Positions 2,636 to 10,385 of a DNA stretch of 32,000 bases are shown piece by piece. Below the pieces are notes generated by a model that saw only the letters and a list, made by a program, of their open reading frames with translations, was not told the DNA's origin and made no database searches. The translations under genes and the position numbers were made by a program. Every line of letters begins with the position of its first letter. The first letter of the stretch is position 1. The stretch comes from Methylophaga frappieri (GTDB lineage: Bacteria; Pseudomonadota; Gammaproteobacteria; Nitrosococcales; Methylophagaceae): contig NC_017856.1 in assembly GCF_000260965.1 (NCBI RefSeq), forward strand, positions 1,680,001 to 1,712,000. Direction: 5' to 3'.

Positions 2636-3826
2636 ATGAAAAAAACTACATTAGCGAGCCTGATCGGCGCAGCAGCATTTGCCGTAGCTGGCGCAGCCAA
2701 CGCGACAATCGTTGTTGGTGGCGAAAATGGTTACGAGTTCAGTGTTGACGGTAATATCAACCAATTCTTTATCCACACGGATTCAGATAACCCAGGCATG
2801 GGCGATCAAAAAAATTCTCAAGTTGCCAACGGCCTGTTGCCAACATTCTTTGGCTTCAACGTTTCAGCACCTGAAGTCAATGGTCTGAAAGTAGCCGCAC
2901 GCGTTTCTATCTCTCCATCGACTAATGATGGCAGCTATTTCGGCGGTGCTTTGAACCAAGGCAGTGGCGCAATGGAGCAACGTGAAGCGTTTGCGACTGT
3001 TGACGGTTCTTTTGGTCAAGTGATGTTAGGTAAAGGTCTGGGTCTGTACTCAGCCAACAACATCTTGCTGGATCAAACTTTGTTTGGTGTGGGTGCGACT
3101 GGCTTGGCTGCTGGTGGTGCACAAAACTCTGCTGTTACGACACTGGGTCGTATTGGCTGGGGTTATGAGTACGCAAACTGGCGTTCACAAATCAAGTGGA
3201 CATCAAACGATATGGGCGGCTTTAAAGTTGCTGTTGCGGTATTGGATGCTGACGACTACGAAAATTCGATTTATGGCCGTGGTATTGAAGAAAAAGACCC
3301 ACGCTATGAAGCGTCTATCAGCTATGCGGGTGCTTTTGACGGCGGCAGCATGAAGCTGTGGTTAGACGGCATGTCTCAAAAAGTTGAGTATGTTGGTACT
3401 GACGATCGTTCACACGCTTGGACACTGGGTGGCCAATTAGTATTAGGTGGCTTTGAAGCCGTTGCCGCATACTATGACAGTGAAGGCCAAGGCCTGGCTG
3501 GTTTAGGTCTGGGGGCATTTGATGCTAATGGCGATGCTCGTGAAGGCGATGGTTACTATGCACAGTTAGGTTACCGCTTTGGTGGACAAACTTTCCTTGC
3601 AGCTTCTTACGGTGAATCAACACTTGATAACGCTGGTGCTGCAACGATTTCTGATGGTTTCGGTAACCTCGATAAAAACAGCATGTTTACTGTTGGTGTT
3701 TACCATGACGTTACTTCCAACCTGAAACTGGTTGCTGAATACTCTAAAATGGAAACTGAATTCCATGATACTTCAGCAGAACCAGAAACTGATGTTATCG
3801 CTATCGGTGGTTTCATTAGCTGGTAA
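2636..3826 (+). CDS. Outer-membrane beta-barrel porin
   Basis: Signal peptide MKKTTLASLIGAAAFAVAGAANA. Gly/Tyr/Asp-rich sequence with alternating beta-strand pattern and a C-terminal aromatic residue (..AIGGFISW). SD GAAGG upstream. Codon choice is strongly biased (cgt, ggt, ctg), as expected for a highly expressed gene. Confidence 0.75.
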   Translation: MKKTTLASLIGAAAFAVAGAANATIVVGGENGYEFSVDGNINQFFIHTDSDNPGMGDQKNSQVANGLLPTFFGFNVSAPEVNGLKVAARVSISPSTNDGSYFGGALNQGSGAMEQREAFATVDGSFGQVMLGKGLGLYSANNILLDQTLFGVGATGLAAGGAQNSAVTTLGRIGWGYEYANWRSQIKWTSNDMGGFKVAVAVLDADDYENSIYGRGIEEKDPRYEASISYAGAFDGGSMKLWLDGMSQKVEYVGTDDRSHAWTLGGQLVLGGFEAVAAYYDSEGQGLAGLGLGAFDANGDAREGDGYYAQLGYRFGGQTFLAASYGESTLDNAGAATISDGFGNLDKNSMFTVGVYHDVTSNLKLVAEYSKMETEFHDTSAEPETDVIAIGGFISW

Positions 3827-3870
3827 GACCAGTTAGCTTGAATCCACTGGATTCAGCTTAACGTCTTGAA

Positions 3871-3900
3871 AGCCTCAACCTTCGGGTTGGGGCTTTTTTT
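3871..3900 (+). terminator. Rho-independent terminator after the porin gene
   Basis: Stem agcctcaacc / ggttggggct, ttcg tetraloop, T7 run. A second weaker hairpin plus T-run lies at about 3907..3930. Confidence 0.8.
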
Positions 3901-3962
3901 ATTTTTGGCTTGCACCAAAGCCGTTTTTTTAATAGCTTTTGAGATTCTTTTATTGCTAATTG

Positions 3963-4595
3963 ATGAATATGACTATTGCCATTTCAACCTGCCTGAACGC
4001 CATTACACTGACCTTGCAACAGCATGCTGATGAGGTTGCGGAACTGGATCAGGCCATTGGCGATGGTGATCACCTGGTTAATCTGCAACGTGGCTTGACT
4101 GCCCTCACGCAAGATTCGAGTTCGTTGGATAAGATGGCGTTACCTGAGGCGTTGAGCAAAATTGGTATGACACTGATGTCCACTATGGGTGGTGCGTCCG
4201 GCTCATTGCTTGGATCCATGTTTGTCACCATGGGCAAAACGGCTAAAAACACCCTAGCAGACTTTGCAGGCTTGGTAGACATTTATGCCGCGGGCGTCGC
4301 TGCAGTCAAGGCTCGCGGTAAGGCAGATATTGGCGAGAAAACCATGTTGGACACGCTGATTCCCGCGCTGGTGAGTTTGCAGGCCAGTGTGCGTTCAAAC
4401 GACTCGCTGATGCAAGCAATGCAGTCATTGCAGCAGGCCGCCGAGCAAGGCATGTTGTCAACAAAAGACATGTTGCCGACCAAAGGCCGTGCGTCCTTCC
4501 TGGGGGAACGAGCACGCGGCCATATTGATGCAGGTGCCAGAACCAGTCAGCTCATTCTCAGCGCCATTGCAGACGAAGTTATTCAAAACCAATAA
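3963..4595 (+). CDS. dhaL: Dihydroxyacetone kinase, ADP-binding subunit DhaL
   Basis: All-helical DAK2-type sequence with the nucleotide/Mg motif LDQAIGDGDH and C-terminal GRASFLGERARGHIDAGA. The start is uncertain (TTG 3960, ATG 3963, ATG 3969) and no clear SD is present. Confidence 0.8.
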   Translation: MNMTIAISTCLNAITLTLQQHADEVAELDQAIGDGDHLVNLQRGLTALTQDSSSLDKMALPEALSKIGMTLMSTMGGASGSLLGSMFVTMGKTAKNTLADFAGLVDIYAAGVAAVKARGKADIGEKTMLDTLIPALVSLQASVRSNDSLMQAMQSLQQAAEQGMLSTKDMLPTKGRASFLGERARGHIDAGARTSQLILSAIADEVIQNQ

Positions 4596-4598
4596 GGT

Positions 4599-5591
4599 TT
4601 AACAGCCCCACCGTAAAGCCGCTGTATGCACGGGAGCATCCCAGAGTGCAATGAGTTCTTCATCTAACAGGGTAACCGTGACAGAGCAGCCGATCATGTC
4701 CAGAGAGGTTGTGTAGTTCCCCACTAAACTACGATGAATTTCAATACCTTTTTGTTGCCAATATTTGGCAGCAATATCAAATACCAAATACAACTCCATC
4801 AATGGGGTGGCGCCAAGACCATTGATATGCAGCAATATTTTTTGTCCAGCCTGTGGCGATAAATCCCGATCAATCGTTTCGGTTAATTGCTGAACCAATG
4901 TTTCCGCTGAGGCCATCGGCACAATATCGCGGCCGCGCTCACCGTGAATACCTACACCCATTTCGACTTCATTATCAGCGATCGTAAAAGTTGGCTTACC
5001 CACTTCCGGAACGGTACAACTACTCAGCGCCAACCCCATTGAAGCAGTTTGACGACAGACTTTCTCGCCCAGTGCTTTACAGGCAGCGAGATCCCGACCT
5101 TGTTCAGCGGCTGCACCAACAATTTTTTCGACGATAAGTGTCCCGGCAACACCCCGTCTGCCCGTACTGTGATCTGCTGGCAACGAGACATCATCCGCTA
5201 CCAGCACGGTCGCATTTTCTGCTTCCAACATCTCGGCGGCAATTTCAAAGTTCATCACGTCACCAGCATAATTTTTGACAATGAATAGCACACCAGCACC
5301 GTTTTCAACGGATTCAGCCGCCGCCAGCATTTGATCGGGCGTTGGTGAGGTAAAGACCTGTCCCGGACAGGCCGCATCCAACATCCCCTGACCAACGAAA
5401 CCGGCATGCAGTGGTTCATGACCCGCACCACCACCTGAAACAAGCGCGACCTTAGGGTGATTCGCAATATGCTTTCGCCGAACAAATCTCGGCGACGTTT
5501 CTGCAATGACAATATCGGCATGGGCAATGGCAAAGCCCTGTAATGACTCTGTCAATAATGTGTCCGGTTGGTTCAATAGTTTTTTCATCAA
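4599..5591 (-). CDS. dhaK: Dihydroxyacetone kinase, DHA-binding subunit DhaK
   Basis: 330 aa. DAK1 hallmarks are present: VALVSGGGAGHEPLHAGFVGQGMLDAACPGQVFTSPTP and IVKNYAGDVMNF. It starts 8 nt after the upstream HAD gene. Confidence 0.88.
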   Translation of the reverse strand: MMKKLLNQPDTLLTESLQGFAIAHADIVIAETSPRFVRRKHIANHPKVALVSGGGAGHEPLHAGFVGQGMLDAACPGQVFTSPTPDQMLAAAESVENGAGVLFIVKNYAGDVMNFEIAAEMLEAENATVLVADDVSLPADHSTGRRGVAGTLIVEKIVGAAAEQGRDLAACKALGEKVCRQTASMGLALSSCTVPEVGKPTFTIADNEVEMGVGIHGERGRDIVPMASAETLVQQLTETIDRDLSPQAGQKILLHINGLGATPLMELYLVFDIAAKYWQQKGIEIHRSLVGNYTTSLDMIGCSVTVTLLDEELIALWDAPVHTAALRWGC

Positions 5592-5599
5592 TAGATTCC

Positions 5600-6442
5600 T
5601 TATTTCAGACTAGCTTCCAGCGCAGCAGTAATCGCAGGCAGGTCGGGTAAAATCCAGTCTGGCCCGTAGTCCAAGTCGTCTACTTCCGATGCTGTTGAAA
5701 CACCAGTCAATACCATCAGGCTCCGGATACCTGCATTAACAGCCCCTAATATGTCGGTGTTCAAACGATCGCCAATGGCAATGGTGTTGTGTTTCTCTGT
5801 TCCCAAAATTTCAAAAGCTTGTTGATATAAGATCGGTTCCGGTTTACCAATAACCCTTGGTGCTTTTCCAGTCACACTGGTTAACGCCGCCAAGACGCCA
5901 CCATTGCCCATCACCTCTCCCCGCTCTGTAGGCAAGCTAGAGTCAGCATTTGTCGCATAAAATAGGGCGCCATGATTCAGGTTAAGCGTTGCGGTGGCTA
6001 ATTTATCCCAAGTCAGTTTTCTATCAAGGCCAGAAACAACAACATCGGCCCAGTCAACCGACTCATCAGGGTGCGTGGGTTTTAAATCAATGAGGTCTGT
6101 TAACGAAAAACCCTGTTCTTCAAGGGGGTGCCGTAAGCCAGCCTCACCAATCACAAATACCCGTTTTTTGTCATCTGGCAGATTTTCCTTAAGGTAACGG
6201 GCTGTTGCCATACTCGAAGTTAAAACCTCATCCGCGGATACCTCAACTGACATACTGGCTAATTTGTCGATATATTGTGTTTGGGTAAGACTGGCGTTGT
6301 TAGTCGCCAACACGAACGGCAACTTTACCGAGCGCAATAAAGCAAAAAACTCCGATAGTCCGGGTAACGCGTTATTGCCGTGCCAGAGTACGCCATCCAT
6401 ATCGATGATCAGCCCGCCGATATTTTCAATTTTCGTCTGCAT
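5600..6442 (-). CDS. HAD-IIA family sugar-phosphate phosphatase (NagD-like)
   Basis: Motif I (IIDMDGVLW), motif II (LATNNAS) and motif IV (AIGDRLNTD) are present. I chose the ATG at 6442 by N-terminal length relative to NagD-type proteins. An in-frame ATG at 6475 would add 11 aa. Confidence 0.75.
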   Translation of the reverse strand: MQTKIENIGGLIIDMDGVLWHGNNALPGLSEFFALLRSVKLPFVLATNNASLTQTQYIDKLASMSVEVSADEVLTSSMATARYLKENLPDDKKRVFVIGEAGLRHPLEEQGFSLTDLIDLKPTHPDESVDWADVVVSGLDRKLTWDKLATATLNLNHGALFYATNADSSLPTERGEVMGNGGVLAALTSVTGKAPRVIGKPEPILYQQAFEILGTEKHNTIAIGDRLNTDILGAVNAGIRSLMVLTGVSTASEVDDLDYGPDWILPDLPAITAALEASLK

Positions 6443-6548
6443 GTGAGTTACGTTTGGTCTGAGATAAAAAATCATTTAAGCGTCGCACTTTGCTGTGACC
6501 CTGTCCAGCCCAATCCACCAGTTCACCGAGCCGCTTGATGGCTAAAAA

Positions 6549-6578
6549 TTGACAGCGTTTGAGCAACTGCTTTATAGT
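6549..6578 (+). promoter_or_regulatory. Sigma70 promoter for hps copy 1
   Basis: Perfect -35 TTGACA (6549..6554), 18-nt spacer, -10 TATAGT (6573..6578). It lies about 60 nt upstream of the hps1 ATG, which has SD AGGAG at 6625..6629. Confidence 0.6.
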
Positions 6579-6638
6579 CTTGTGGCGTAAATTCAACGTA
6601 AAACCATAAATTAAATCAAATTTTAGGAGCATGTCAGC

Positions 6639-7280
6639 ATGGCAAAAGCACTTATTCAAATGGCCCTTGATTCTCTGGATTTCGATCAAACTATCGCACT
6701 TGCTGAGCAAGTTTCGCCTTATGTCGACATCCTCGAAGTTGGTACACCGTGCATCAAATATAACGGTCTGGAAATCGTTACTGCACTGAAAGCCAAATTC
6801 CCGAACAACTTGATTCTGGTTGACTTGAAAACAATGGACGCGGGTGAATATGAAGCGACGCCTTTCTATGAAGCTGGCGCTGACATTTGCACCGTTTTAG
6901 GTGTTTCTGACAAAGCAACTATGGGCGGCGTTATCAAAGCAGCCAATGCAAATAATGCTGAAGCACAAATCGATTTGATCAGCGTTAAAGATAAAAAAGC
7001 CGTTGCCACTGAAGCAGCGAAAAACGGTGCGCAAATCATTGGTGTTCACACTGGTCTGGATGCACAAGCTGCTGGCCAAACCCCATTCGCTGACTTGCAA
7101 GCCATTGCTTCACTGAATCTGGGTGTGCGTATTTCTGTTGCTGGTGGTCTGAACAAAGACACTATCCAGAAAACTATCCAAGCTGGTGCTAACATTGTTG
7201 TTGTTGGTGCGGCGATCTACGGTGCGCCATCTCCAGCAGAATCTGCTAAAGAATTGCGTGCTCTGGTTGATGCTGCTTAA
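6639..7280 (+). CDS. hps: 3-hexulose-6-phosphate synthase, copy 1
   Basis: 213 aa of the OMP-decarboxylase-like HPS family: QMALDSLDFD..., DILEVGTPCIKYNG, LVDLKTMDAGEYEA, IGVHTGLDAQA, VAGGLN. It is a paralogue of the ORF at 9137..9772. Confidence 0.92.
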   Translation: MAKALIQMALDSLDFDQTIALAEQVSPYVDILEVGTPCIKYNGLEIVTALKAKFPNNLILVDLKTMDAGEYEATPFYEAGADICTVLGVSDKATMGGVIKAANANNAEAQIDLISVKDKKAVATEAAKNGAQIIGVHTGLDAQAAGQTPFADLQAIASLNLGVRISVAGGLNKDTIQKTIQAGANIVVVGAAIYGAPSPAESAKELRALVDAA

Positions 7281-7303
7281 GCGAGACCATTGAACGAAAC
7301 TAG

Positions 7304-7336
7304 AAAACGAGTGGCACACTGCCACTCGTTTTTTTT
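7304..7336 (+). terminator. Rho-independent terminator after hps1
   Basis: Perfect 10-bp stem acgagtggca / tgccactcgt, 3-nt loop, T8 run. Confidence 0.85.
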
Positions 7337-7402
7337 ATCAGATTCCTTACAGGCTGGTTGAACTTGTCAGGCACGCAGCCAAAACTGTCGGCTAGCTGAG
7401 AG

Positions 7403-7484
7403 TGGTCAAAGACAACTTTGCAGCGCTATAATTTTAATCGCGTTTATGTGTTGGCTTGCCACAAGAAACCTAAAATAGTAATTT
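7403..7484 (+). promoter_or_regulatory. Candidate sigma70 promoters for the repeat-protein ORF
   Basis: Two candidates. First: TGGTCA (7403..7408), 18-nt spacer, TATAAT (7427..7432). Second: TTGCCA (7456..7461), 17-nt spacer, TAATTT (7479..7484). Motif match only. Confidence 0.35.
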
Positions 7485-7555
7485 ACCCGTTGCGCCAACC
7501 TCACTAACCGTTGGGCAGATGGGGTTAGAATAATAAGGTAACAGGGGTATTTCTC

Positions 7556-7861
7556 ATGAGTGACAAAGGACTTTTGGCATCAATTTGCAGCTTCCTGAAA
7601 GGATTGTTTTCCGCCTCTAAGGACAGTGATTGTTGCAACGATAATGCGTCGAGCAAACCGGCAAATGATGGACTGACCAGTGTTGAGCGTTATATTCGTA
7701 ACCAAGCGCAGAATGGTCAGTCTTTGACCGGTGTTGAGCGTTATATTCGCAATCAACTCAGCAACAACCAACCACTGACTGGTGTAGAGAAATACATCCG
7801 TAACAGTGCTGGCACCAAACCACTGACTGGTGTAGAGCGCTATATCCGTAGCAAGTCTTAA
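7556..7861 (+). CDS. Small hypothetical protein with four tandem LTGVE(R/K)YIR repeats and a Cys-containing N-terminus
   Basis: 101-aa ORF with SD AGGGG 8 nt upstream and a strong terminator downstream. The repeat core is conserved at the amino-acid level while codons differ synonymously between units. I recognise no domain. Confidence 0.6.
   Translation: MSDKGLLASICSFLKGLFSASKDSDCCNDNASSKPANDGLTSVERYIRNQAQNGQSLTGVERYIRNQLSNNQPLTGVEKYIRNSAGTKPLTGVERYIRSKS
7673..7858 (+). repeat. In-frame tandem repeat, 4 units of 51/51/48/36 nt
   Basis: The units encode LTSVERYIRNQAQNGQS, LTGVERYIRNQLSNNQP, LTGVEKYIRNSAGTKP and LTGVERYIRSKS. At the DNA level units 1 and 2 are most alike, as are units 3 and 4. 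Confidence 0.85.
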
Positions 7862-7885
7862 AGCGCTACGCAAGCAAACAGCTAC

Positions 7886-7930
7886 ATTACGACGCAGCAA
7901 TGCTCGCATTGCTATGGCGTCGTAATTTTT
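7886..7930 (+). terminator. Compound rho-independent terminator after the repeat-protein ORF
   Basis: Outer stem attacgacgc / gcgtcgtaat encloses inner stem gcaatgc / gcattgc and is followed by T5. A further gccggc-attg-gccggc hairpin lies at 7931..7946. Confidence 0.8.
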
Positions 7931-8008
7931 GCCGGCATTGGCCGGCAATTTTAACTGGGCCGCCCAACCCGACAGACTTTTAAATATTCGTTTAAAAAAG
8001 GTACTCAA

Positions 8009-8992
8009 ATGGCGAACTTACTTGATCAATTGAAGCAAATGACCATTGTTGTTGCAGACACTGGTGATATTCAAGCCATCGAAAAATATACACCACGTGA
8101 TGCGACAACCAACCCATCACTCATTACCGCAGCCGCGCAAATGCCACAATATCAGGCTATCGTAGATGATACGTTGAAAGCAGCGCGTCAATCCCTGGGA
8201 GCAAGTGCGGATGCCAAAGAAGTCGCTACCCTGGCGTTTGATCGTCTGGCCGTTTCTTTTGGTTTGAAAATTCTGGAAATCATTCCTGGTCGTGTCTCAA
8301 CTGAAGTTGATGCGCGTCTGTCTTACGATACAGAAGCAACCATCGCCAAAGGGCGTGAAATCATTGCGCAATATGAAGCAGCGGGTGTATCTAAAGATCG
8401 TATCCTGATTAAAATCGCGTCAACCTGGGAAGGTATTCAGGCTGCTGCGGTGCTGGAAAAAGAAAACATTCACTGTAATTTGACATTGCTGTTCGGTCTG
8501 CACCAGGCAATTGCTTGCGCAGAAAACGGTATCACACTGATTTCACCATTCGTTGGCCGCATTCTTGACTGGTACAAAAAAGATACCGGTCGTGATTCAT
8601 ATGCTTCTCATGAAGATCCAGGTGTACTTTCTGTCACCGAAATCTATAGCTACTACAAAAAGTTTGGCTATAACACTGAAGTCATGGGCGCCAGCTTCCG
8701 TAATGTGGGTGAAATCACTGAACTGGCCGGTGTTGACTTGCTGACCATTTCGCCTGCTCTGTTAGATGAGTTGCAAAAAACAGAAGGCACGCTGGAACGT
8801 AAACTGTCTCCAGAGAAAGCAGCCAATGCCAACATCGATAAAATCAGTATCGATAAAGCCACTTTCGACAAAATGCATGATGAAAACCGCATGGCGGCAG
8901 AGAAATTGTCCGAAGGCATTGATGGTTTTGCTAAGGCGCTGGAAACCTTGGAAGAACTGCTGGCATCACGTCTGGCAGAGCTGGAAAGCTAA
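8009..8992 (+). CDS. tal: Transaldolase (TalB-type, class I)
   Basis: 327 aa. Motifs [41 protein letters not shown] and NLTLLF match classical transaldolase. Confidence 0.92.
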
Positions 8993-9011
8993 TCGAACAT
9001 CATTAGCACCC

Positions 9012-9040
9012 GTCCGGTCGGTTGAACTACCCGACCGGAC
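9012..9040 (+). other. Stable hairpin after tal without a proper T-tract (possible partial terminator or RNA-processing site)
   Basis: 10-bp perfect stem gtccggtcgg / ccgaccggac with a 9-nt loop. A second small hairpin gaacagc-acg-ctgttc lies at about 9054..9070. Neither has a U-run. Confidence 0.4.
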
Positions 9041-9136
9041 AACACAGTCTTTTGGAACAGCACGCTGTTCTAATTGCTGATAAGAAAAACCCGTTAACCA
9101 TAATGGGATCATTTTTTAACTTTAGGAGTAAACAAC

Positions 9137-9772
9137 ATGGCTGAAATTCAAATGGCTCTGGACTCACTGGATTTTGACGCAACAATGGCGCTGGCTGAAC
9201 AAGTCGCTCCTTACGTCGATATTCTGGAAATTGGTACCCCTTGCATCAAATACAACGGTCTGAAACTGGTTAAAGCACTGAAAGCTGCTCACCCAGACAA
9301 GAAAATCCTGGTTGACCTGAAAACAATGGATGCGGGCGAATACGAAGCCACTCCTTTCTTTGAAGCTGGTGGTGACATCACAACTGTTCTGGGCGCTTCT
9401 GATATGGCGACCATGAAAGGGGTTATCAAAGCGGCTAACGCAAACAACGGCGAAGCTCAAATCGACTTGATCGGTGTTGAAGATAAAGCTGCTGTTGCTA
9501 AAGATGCAGCAACTAACGGCGCGCACATCATCGGTGTTCACACTGGTCTGGACGCACAAGCTGCAGGTCAAACACCATTCGAAGATCTGAAAACCATCAC
9601 TGGTCTGGGTCTGAATGTTAAAGTTTCTGTTGCTGGTGGTATCAACAAAGACACTATCCAAAGCTGTGTACAAGCAGGTGCGGCTATCGTTGTTGTTGGT
9701 GCAGCTATCTACGGCGCGCCTTCTCCAGCAGAATCTGCTAAAGAACTGCGTGCACTGGTTGACGCAGCCTAA
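9137..9772 (+). CDS. hps: 3-hexulose-6-phosphate synthase, copy 2
   Basis: 211 aa with SD AGGAG. It has the same motif set as copy 1. My manual alignment gives 40 differences over 208 aligned residues. Confidence 0.92.
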   Translation: MAEIQMALDSLDFDATMALAEQVAPYVDILEIGTPCIKYNGLKLVKALKAAHPDKKILVDLKTMDAGEYEATPFFEAGGDITTVLGASDMATMKGVIKAANANNGEAQIDLIGVEDKAAVAKDAATNGAHIIGVHTGLDAQAAGQTPFEDLKTITGLGLNVKVSVAGGINKDTIQSCVQAGAAIVVVGAAIYGAPSPAESAKELRALVDAA

Positions 9773-9796
9773 GCATAAAAATAAGGAAACTAAATA

Positions 9797-10330
9797 ATGC
9801 ATCGTGATCTACTGTTAAACAAAATCACTGACATTCTTGGCGCGACGGAAGAATCTTATGAAGCCAAACTGGTTTCTATGTGTGATGATGCCAAGCGTAT
9901 CTTCATTACAGGTGCTGGTCGTTCCAAGCTAGTAGGTAATTTCCTGGGTATGAGATTGATGCATAGTGGTTATGAAACCTATGTTCAGGGTGAAGTTGCT
10001 ACCCCAAGTATCCGTAGTGGTGATCTTCTGATCGTCATTTCCGGGTCAGGGGAAACCACTCAACTGGTTTCATTCGCCAATAAGGCCAAGTCAGAAGGCG
10101 CAAAAGTGATTCTGATTTGCTCTAAATCAAAATCCACAATTGGCGATATTGCAGACCAAACGGTTCAAATCGGTAACGATGGCAGCTTTGCAACAACTAA
10201 AGGCCTGCCCATGGGCACCATGTTTGAACTTTCCACATTGATTTTTCTCGAAGCCACAATTTCTTATCTTATCCATGAGAAAGGCATCGCAGAAGAAGAT
10301 ATGCGGTACCGGCATGCCAATATGGAATAA
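9797..10330 (+). CDS. phi: 6-phospho-3-hexuloisomerase (SIS domain)
   Basis: 177 aa with SIS motifs IFITGAGRSKLV and LLIVISGSGET. It starts 24 nt after hps2 and has SD AAGGAA. Confidence 0.9.
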   Translation: MHRDLLLNKITDILGATEESYEAKLVSMCDDAKRIFITGAGRSKLVGNFLGMRLMHSGYETYVQGEVATPSIRSGDLLIVISGSGETTQLVSFANKAKSEGAKVILICSKSKSTIGDIADQTVQIGNDGSFATTKGLPMGTMFELSTLIFLEATISYLIHEKGIAEEDMRYRHANME

Positions 10331-10354: not shown

Positions 10355-10385
10355 AAAAAGGCAGCCTCCGGGCTGCCTTTTTTTT
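10355..10385 (+). terminator. Rho-independent terminator after phi
   Basis: A5, then ggcagcc-tccg-ggctgcc, then T8. Confidence 0.85.

Follow-up and report, generated by a model that had tools for sequence, protein, structure and literature searches.

What does a small open reading frame (ORF) with no recognizable domain do in the middle of a formaldehyde-fixation cluster? The question is raised by a stretch of 32,000 nucleotides of the Methylophaga frappieri genome (contig NC_017856.1, positions 1,680,001 to 1,712,000; hereafter the window), in which an ATG-initiated ORF of 101 codons lies at 7556-7861 on the forward strand, between two genes of the ribulose monophosphate (RuMP) pathway, hps1 (3-hexulose-6-phosphate synthase, HPS) and tal (transaldolase). 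Its product is 100% identical to 'hypothetical protein Q7C_1680' of the same species and is called X here; the window thus belongs to a marine methylotroph of the Methylophagaceae and not to a member of the Methylococcales. An earlier note on this DNA, made from the letters alone, had described four repeated units in the product and had suggested that it scaffolds or regulates the enzymes encoded around it, in the manner of the linker proteins of carbon fixation. The analysis below indicates that X is a real, conserved protein-coding gene, and that it belongs, as the minimal and shortest member, to an undescribed family, 350 or more proteins that carry arrays of one short motif (TGVxKYL) and, in two bacterial orders, are encoded among RuMP genes. 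The scaffold idea is plausible and strengthened, but unproven.

Evidence for a real gene

The translation of the ORF was confirmed, and its ribosome-binding site and four units are as first described, the former being conserved throughout the family. The gene and its parts are as follows:

7543..7547, plus strand: Shine-Dalgarno sequence AGGGG, 8 nt before the ATG (sequence; ACAGGGGTAT is nearly invariant in relatives)
7556..7861, plus strand: coding sequence of the 101-residue TGVxKYL-array protein X, Q7C_1680 (translation, homologues, alignment, codon statistics)
7565..7609, plus strand: N-terminal amphipathic helix, residues 4-18 (KGLLASICSFLKGLF), with the conserved C11; putative peripheral membrane anchor or protein-binding helix (AlphaFold helix, conserved columns)
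7610..7672, plus strand: variable low-complexity spacer, residues 19-39, with the non-conserved C26 and C27 (alignment; AlphaFold, with a predicted local distance difference test (pLDDT) score <50 at residues 28-32)
7673..7858, plus strand: four motif units, residues 40-56, 57-73, 74-89 and 90-101, the LTGVE[RK]YIR core of each predicted as a short helix (translation, alignment, AlphaFold)

The units (LTSVERYIRNQAQNGQS, LTGVERYIRNQLSNNQP, LTGVEKYIRNSAGTKP and LTGVERYIRSKS) span residues 40-101, with motif starts at nucleotides 7676, 7727, 7778 and 7826, and four residues remain between the last motif and the C-terminus. The repeat exists at the protein level only: no DNA-level tandem repeat was found by Tandem Repeats Finder, and when the DNA is read directly the codons are seen to vary synonymously between units. 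This variation had been taken as a sign of selection on this reading frame, a conclusion that comparison across 55 orthologues of X bears out. Entropy at the three codon positions is 0.69, 0.54 and 1.30, and the median dN/dS is about 0.26 (with dS saturated), which indicates that X is under purifying selection. The antisense ORF that overlaps X (7580-8008) is open in none of the 55 and was rejected as the real gene on that ground.

A search of a large protein database returned 134 homologues of X at E<=0.01, of 84-114 residues, every one annotated as 'hypothetical'. In their alignment the N-terminal segment is conserved at K4, G5, A8, S9, C11, F13, L17, F18 and S19, the spacer is variable, and T, V, E and Y are invariant in the repeat cores. 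The number of repeats is four in 48 of 55 genomes (range 2-6). As to the three cysteines singled out earlier, C11 in the helix is indeed kept (53/55 orthologues, 114/120 homologues), whereas the C26/C27 pair, on which a likeness to CP12 had been built, is found in only 19/55 orthologues and 24/120 homologues, and that part of the argument falls. Codon usage was likewise said to resemble that of highly expressed neighbours. In fact it is intermediate: at -0.08 bits per codon X lies near phi (-0.10) and above all non-RuMP genes of the window (-0.17 to -0.45), but below hps1, hps2 and tal.

A family built on one short linear motif

Searches of Pfam, NCBIfam, PHROGs, PADLOC and PDB sequences gave no significant family for X (there was no CP12-type or other match at cut-offs of E<=0.01 for Pfam and E<=1 for NCBIfam), in line with the earlier statement that the motif could be assigned to no named domain. 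Sub-threshold matches to U1snRNP70_N, DUF6292, ATP_synth_reg, CdiI_2 and VPg are repeat noise with no passing stretch. A full-text search of the literature did not find the motif strings, and no description of a hypothetical gene in Methylophaga or methanotroph RuMP operons was found in the literature searched.

A profile search of 1.84 billion representative proteins gave 266 matches. The true ones share one architecture, namely an N-terminal amphipathic or hydrophobic segment, a spacer, and 2-21 motif units placed 13-20 residues apart; in many members the N-terminal segment is a real transmembrane (TM) helix followed by K/R. Among those with names are Methylococcales proteins from Methylomicrobium album BG8 (Metal_3461), Methylovulum, Methyloglobulus, Methylosoma and metagenome-assembled genomes (MAGs) of Methylococcaceae. 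Eukaryotic matches (fish Ki-67, plant R1B-14 and others) are unrelated tandem repeats, such as TTVEEYL or TGVPMYI, whose weak matches add up. For eukaryotic giant repeat proteins these artefacts reach E values down to 1e-40 (P0121, P0125, P0132, P0137, P0167, P0176, P0207 and P0223), which calls for caution in repeat-profile searches generally.

The family, for which no prior name was found, was delimited here by three features: at least two copies of [TS]-G-V-x-[KR]-Y-[LI], 13-20 residues apart, the last about 6 residues or less from the C-terminus; an N-terminal amphipathic or hydrophobic segment with a variable spacer; and a gene placed among hps, phi, tkt, tal and fba. X has all three, with four copies and a four-residue tail, a helix at residues 4-18 with a disordered stretch at 19-41, and the gene order hps1-X-tal-hps2-phi. 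Over 2,687 instances in 357 proteins the unit consensus is x-P-x-[LV]-[T63/S37]-[G72]-V-[A/E/S/D]-[K55/R30]-Y-[L59/I23]-x-[K/N]-[Q54], in which the invariance of V and Y is no independent finding, since the search pattern demanded both. The last unit ends within 6 residues of the C-terminus in 90% of the 357 proteins, and exactly four residues follow it in 246 of them. By our own estimate the strict motif is expected by chance less than once per proteome, and outside this gene family it occurs nowhere in the roughly 535,000 ORF-like residues of all loci fetched, RuMP enzymes included. The T/S-G-V-x-K/R-Y-L/I core persists in members whose net charge lies anywhere from -57 to +22, which favours specific recognition over electrostatics.

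Long array proteins (P0274, P0124, P0126, P0222, L073 3628-4797, L064 7001-8872, L069 8001-9326 and L071 4366-5856) carry further conserved short motifs, namely 'CLEGEFIPAG' near the C-terminal third and units of the form 'A.I[IV]ARY[LR]..E'. The N-terminal amphipathic module recurs internally in two long relatives (GILGAISSFFIYRE and SFFGAIRAFFVYED), a recurrence that suits a helix lying in the membrane plane or binding protein better than a signal anchor.

Predicted structure

With the family alignment as input, AlphaFold places helices in X at residues 4-18, 42-52, 59-70, 76-85 and 92-100 and disorder at 19-41, with a mean pLDDT of 66 and a predicted template modelling (pTM) score of 0.31. 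An 11-unit relative from Methylovulum is likewise modelled with one helix per motif (pTM 0.18). In these models the repeats behave as independent short helices on flexible linkers without a global fold, in agreement with the disordered, multivalent protein that had been supposed, and a structural alpha-solenoid was rejected on the isolated helices and low pTM values with four and with eleven units.

The N-terminal helix of X (mean hydrophobicity <H> of 0.57 and hydrophobic moment muH of 0.39 over 14 residues) is too short to span a membrane, and the best 19-residue Kyte-Doolittle mean of the protein is 0.85. At the same position relatives have hydrophobic TM segments of 16-19 residues, or a signal peptide plus TM segment, and these true anchors imply that the arrays would face the cytoplasm. 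A lipoprotein or secreted peptide was considered and rejected, given that only 6 hydrophobic residues precede C11 and that the -1 residue is Ile; no dedicated predictor was used for this.

Position among RuMP genes

The order hps1-X-tal-hps2-phi is found in 55/55 Methylophagaceae loci. The region is, however, collinear over about 12 kb there, and this synteny is therefore weak evidence on its own. More telling is that in 11/11 sampled N-anchored relatives, from Methylococcales and related MAGs, the array gene is again found within the RuMP cluster, with five or more gene arrangements overall, which makes the link to RuMP genes stronger than could be seen from one genome. Indeed, the search of Methylococcales for the motif together with synteny and repeat number, proposed as a check in the earlier note, gave the positive result that had been predicted. 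The arrangements, in which X' stands for the array gene of the first and orfY for a second gene described below, include hps-phi-tkt-orfY-X'-tal-fba (Methylomicrobium album, Methylovulum, Methylosoma and others; a short contig with orfY-X'-tal is consistent with it), hps-X-hps-phi-tkt-orfY-tal-fba, X-hps-phi-tkt-orfY-tal-fba, hpsphi fusion-X-hps-phi-tkt, and hps-X-tal with an X of 70 residues. Two loci (L072 and L074) have different genes around the RuMP set and still keep the array genes among RuMP genes.

Two observations concern the hps genes next to the arrays. In L069 the array gene lies between two hps copies (7215-7862 and 9557-10204) that are 100% identical, which points to a recent duplication or to gene conversion. 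In L064 the hps copy that precedes the array gene is fused to phi.

A second family in the same operons

Between tkt and tal, methanotroph RuMP operons carry a gene of another undescribed family, orfY. Its 821 homologues are all annotated as 'hypothetical'. The bitopic product combines a signal peptide with [QK]YPAx[DN]FxPxVV[YF] motifs in the periplasm (one or two), a TM helix, and TGVxKYL units in the cytoplasm (2-4), and ends in ...TGVEKY[LM]RNxG-COOH. X and orfY thus both carry cytoplasmic TGVxKYL units in a RuMP operon, whereas the signal peptide, periplasmic motifs and TM helix set orfY apart from X; orfY may be a trans-membrane adaptor with linear motifs on both sides of the membrane. 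It is absent from the Methylophagaceae loci examined and was located in the following loci:

L057, 7026-7859: orfY
L059, 7296-7997: orfY
L061, 7302-7997: orfY
L069, 12901-13278: orfY
L071, 9386-9778: orfY
L072, 6302-6997: orfY
L073, 8511-9164: orfY
L074, 6333-6995: orfY

The two families amount to two undescribed and widespread groups of proteins, built on a new linear motif inside a much-studied one-carbon (C1) operon.

What the motif may bind

We tentatively favour, at somewhat less than an even chance, the view that X acts close to the membrane as a multivalent adaptor, with motifs that dock one or more RuMP enzymes. X would be small, intrinsically disordered and peripherally associated with the membrane, its N-terminal amphipathic helix placing it at the cytoplasmic face of the inner membrane. 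The four TGVE[RK]YIRNQ units would act as independent short linear motifs, each folding into a short helix upon docking, and the presence of four per chain (about 20 at most in methanotroph relatives) would provide avidity for an oligomeric target. The likeliest target would be one or more of the RuMP enzymes encoded around X; HPS and transaldolase, whose genes adjoin it, would be the candidates to consider first. Methanol dehydrogenase is a periplasmic enzyme (PMC11611044), and the gene hxlA is among the most highly expressed of M. thiooxydans (PMC6548844). Formaldehyde from the dehydrogenase enters across this membrane, and docking by X would concentrate or regulate its fixation there. No statement of membrane-bound HPS was found in the literature searched; Ferenci, Strom and Quayle reportedly described in 1974 a membrane-associated HPS from Methylococcus capsulatus, which serves as a lead only.

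A more elaborate version, which we regard as rather improbable, joins the two families into a trans-membrane 'formaldehyde metabolon' that would be the first natural RuMP scaffold. The periplasmic YPAxDFxPxVVY motifs of orfY would hold a periplasmic partner, for instance methanol dehydrogenase, while the cytoplasmic TGVxKYL units of orfY and X' would hold HPS and other RuMP enzymes opposite; formaldehyde would be captured while crossing the membrane, and Methylophaga would keep a minimal, peripheral version in X. If true, this would explain the reported membrane-bound HPS of Methylococcus mentioned above.

Several points weigh against docking to RuMP enzymes. At the level of expression, no X transcript or peptide was found in the M. 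thiooxydans proteome and transcriptome tables, which list selected genes only, and the sequences of Table S9 are without the motif. Membrane binding by the 14-residue helix is a prediction only. The synteny could partly be the inheritance of one ancestral, possibly horizontally transferred, cluster, and the dak2/dak1/HAD flank is shared as well. X, at 46-73% identity, evolves much faster than HPS (88-99%) or Tal (80-93%), and no natural fusion of the motif to any RuMP enzyme was found in the loci examined. Finally, the motif has other carriers. About six TGVxRY[IL] units lie between the Hpt domains (residues ~825-960) of a 2,036-residue ChpA-like hybrid kinase, and arrays occur in two further ChpA-like fragments (P0235 and P0247), so that the motif appears to serve in a type IV pilus or chemosensory kinase of the Methylophaga lineage. 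A class of carriers with a Cys/His domain is encoded upstream of leuA, outside the RuMP cluster; its members have an N-terminal 'MAKNLFEQF...', 4-8 TGVxKYL units and a C-terminal C-x8-C ... C-x2-H ('...KGTQCSR...FAVCSQH..FKP'). These carriers are located as follows:

L056 (Methylophaga sp. MES2, NZ_VENF01000004.1), 3517-9627, plus strand: ChpA-like hybrid kinase with three Hpt domains, HATPase, CheW and REC
L062/L063, 7001-7810: Cys/His carrier class (P0165); also P0217, P0221, P0228, P0253, P0257 and P0258

Because such carriers exist, the motif is a portable module whose receptor need not be a RuMP enzyme, and a RuMP-enzyme receptor does not obviously explain either the ChpA-like or the Cys/His carriers.

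It is these carriers that give most substance to another account, unlikely in our view though a serious contender, in which the motif docks to a lineage-specific hub outside the RuMP pathway, such as a polar or membrane landmark with a peptide-binding, TPR-like domain (as in FimV/HubP), or a protein of cell division or of the cytoskeleton. Anchored in the membrane, X and its relatives would then serve this hub as clients, compete for it or regulate it, and their place in the cluster would reflect co-expression with C1 growth and not the direct binding of enzymes. Arrays in multi-Hpt kinases and in the Cys/His class are what such a hub would lead one to expect, and the distance between the last motif and the free C-terminus, fixed at about 4 residues in most members, is as in C-terminal docking peptides. 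Counted in its favour as well is the resemblance of the pattern hydrophobic-x-x-aromatic-aliphatic-R/K-x-Q, where a disordered tail ends, to the C-terminal peptide of FtsZ, DIPAFLRKQ. However, all 66 N-anchored members examined keep their place among RuMP genes through rearrangements and changes of flank, which is hard to attribute to co-expression alone, and a candidate hub gene is linked to the array in none of the loci.

There is only a slender chance that no enzyme client is involved, and that the motif helices bind the membrane or each other, organizing membranes (for instance by spacing the intracytoplasmic membrane stacks of methanotrophs) or forming a condensate. The units are short amphipathic helices that carry V, Y and L/I on one face, plus K/R, and in methanotrophs the proteins are long, anchored by a TM segment and strongly basic (net +16 to +22), all of which would suit such a function; other members, in contrast, are strongly acidic (net -57) with the core unchanged, and the gene adjoins hps and tal, not pmo or membrane-biogenesis genes. 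Moreover, Methylophaga is not known to form such membrane stacks, and nevertheless keeps X.

Even less credence is given to X as a formaldehyde sensor or sacrificial sink, in which K/R-Y pairs, N/Q linkers and the helix Cys would form methylene bridges and the reaction would change the conformation of X or buffer free formaldehyde near the membrane. The location in a formaldehyde-fixation cluster, the near-invariant [KR]-Y, the frequent N/Q and the conserved C11 would fit, by an argument from chemistry. Yet conservation is as high at T, G, V and L/I as at K/R-Y, a sign of a shape-specific interface; what a stoichiometric sink could take up would be negligible beside the RuMP flux; and no known sensor has such an architecture.

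Transcription of X and its neighbours

The signals around the gene and the RuMP genes of the window are:

6639..7280, plus strand: hps1, the upstream neighbour of X (Pfam/NCBIfam)
7304..7336, plus strand: intrinsic terminator after hps1, stem ACGAGTGGCA/TGCCACTCGT with T-run (sequence; hairpin conserved in relatives)
7403..7432, plus strand: promoter-like TGGTCA-N18-TATAAT, 10/12 match, tool-predicted and only partly conserved (promoter prediction, alignment)
7453..7484, plus strand: strongly conserved upstream element, G..TTGCCAC....AA.CTAAAATAG.AATT (invariant columns, 12-genome alignment)
7485..7525, plus strand: stem-loop of the 5'-untranslated region, directly 5' of the Shine-Dalgarno sequence (RNAalifold)
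7886..7953, plus strand: compound terminator or attenuator, a long hairpin (7886-7926) with T-run and a GC hairpin (7929-7948) with T-run (sequence, prediction)
8009..8992, plus strand: tal, the downstream neighbour of X, probably co-transcribed by read-through (Pfam/NCBIfam)
9137..10330, plus strand: hps2 (9137-9772) and phi (9797-10330) (Pfam/NCBIfam)

The terminator after hps1 isolates X, and since a terminator-like hairpin occurs in the hps1-X spacer of 53/54 loci, X needs a promoter of its own. The element at 7453-7484 contains TTGCCA (7456-7461)-N17-TAATTT (7479-7484), with the consensus TTGCCAC-N7-CTAAAATAGTAATTTA, and is more likely than the site at 7403-7432 to be the promoter or an operator of X. 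The stem-loop that follows has 12 pairs, 7 of them with compensatory double changes (RNAalifold on 12 sequences, modest support), and 7453-7525 as a whole may be a promoter or operator plus an mRNA-stabilizing or regulatory hairpin.

An independent transcription unit with a strong compound terminator had been claimed for X. The terminator is strong in the window and present in 39/56 loci, but it is missing in the other 17. About 54 nt separate its end from the ATG of tal, with no promoter-like site between, and tal is probably read through from the X promoter. The claim thus stands as to a separate promoter, not as to full independence: an X-led transcript with partial termination before tal is likely. 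Both tal and hps2-phi may depend on this read-through, which would set the ratio of X to tal expression, with X above tal. That the ORF is no more than a leader or attenuator for read-through into tal-hps-phi, or is spurious, is hardly credible, for although the gap between X and tal holds a compound terminator and leaves no space for a promoter of tal's own, conservation at the protein level (the dN/dS given above and a motif kept through synonymous change) effectively refutes it, the protein architecture is kept in other orders at other positions of the cluster, the stop codon of X lies at least 25 nt upstream of the first hairpin, which a terminating ribosome would not reach, and the terminator itself is dispensed with in those 17 loci. 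The only Rfam match, a weak one to a RyhB-like small RNA at 7888-7954 (E=0.029; it scores 28 bits where the gathering score is 55), is accounted for by the terminator hairpins and does not indicate a small RNA.

A terminator lies 3' of phi at 10355-10382, and beyond it an aconitase-family gene, probably leuC. The two HPS genes of the window, hps1 and hps2, are 80% identical. Upstream of hps1, on the opposite strand, are HAD, DhaK-like (Dak1) and DhaL-like (Dak2) genes. This Dak2/Dak1/HAD-phosphatase trio (window 3960-6475), often with a PfkB kinase, lies immediately upstream of hps in divergent orientation and is also seen in L057, L059, L061, L064, L069, L071 and L073, hence in both Methylophagaceae and Methylococcales; it is a conserved and apparently unexplained companion of the RuMP cluster. 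The remaining genes of the window are housekeeping genes. A 359-codon ORF on the minus strand (993-2072), without a Pfam family at E<=1e-5, adjoins a porin gene.

Implications

Carbon assimilation in type I methanotrophs and many methylotrophs centres on the RuMP operon, whose list of parts has been copied into Escherichia coli and other hosts. Such synthetic methylotrophy is held back chiefly by the toxicity of formaldehyde and its slow fixation, and artificial Mdh-Hps-Phi scaffolds and fusions have been built in response (PMC9214030). In two bacterial orders the operon contains one or two conserved, unannotated and non-enzymatic genes, which between them have more than 1,000 homologues, all 'hypothetical'. 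Both families are built like multivalent adaptors with a membrane anchor. Should their partners be RuMP enzymes, they would be a missing natural component for transplantation of the pathway and a handle on the channelling of a toxic intermediate across a membrane; if the partner is another, the motif would still be a new short linear motif, shared with a chemosensory kinase.

Comparison with known systems

The likeness to CP12, CsoS2 and EPYC1 drawn in the earlier note was one of logic rather than sequence, and can now be made more specific. Like the X family, CsoS2, CcmM and EPYC1 are largely disordered chains in which several short helical motifs sit on flexible linkers; they are encoded beside the carbon-fixation enzyme that they bind, and the number of repeats varies with lineage (2-21 in the X family). 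The X family has no sequence relationship or Pfam match to them, belongs to RuMP and not Calvin-cycle loci, and is predicted to be membrane-anchored, which those linkers are not. More specifically, X has neither a CsoS2/SSUL repeat match nor a carboxysome context, the principle of multivalent helices is seen in its AlphaFold model only, and X is a member of none of the three families. Genes for bacterial microcompartments (BMC), carboxysome shells or Rubisco are not found in the 32-kb window.

CP12 is similar to X as a small (~80-100 residues), disordered protein in a carbon-assimilation context. However, X has no conserved Cys pair, no match to the CP12 family of Pfam and no AWD_VEEL-type core, and its architecture is based on repeats; identity with CP12 was rejected on both the Cys pair and the sequence match. 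In addition, CP12 binds GAPDH and PRK, while the locus of X is of the RuMP pathway and not the Calvin cycle.

With membrane-targeting helices of the MinD/FtsA type and with BMC encapsulation peptides X shares a short terminal amphipathic helix next to a poorly conserved linker. The helix of X, however, is N-terminal and is exchanged for true TM helices in relatives. As for encapsulation peptides, the terminal helix and linker are present, but BMC shell genes are not nearby, and none (PF00936/PF03319) was seen among the called genes of related loci.

Among RuMP systems the closest functional analogues are all artificial, namely engineered Hps-Phi fusions and Mdh-Hps-Phi assemblies held by SH3-ligand pairs (Orita 2007; Price 2016; Fan 2018, reviewed in PMC9214030). 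Both follow the design logic here proposed for X, that is, to co-locate formaldehyde-consuming enzymes, speed fixation and limit toxicity. They are SH3-ligand or linker constructs, whereas a scaffold role of X is a hypothesis; a natural hps-phi fusion, for its part, adjoins an array gene.

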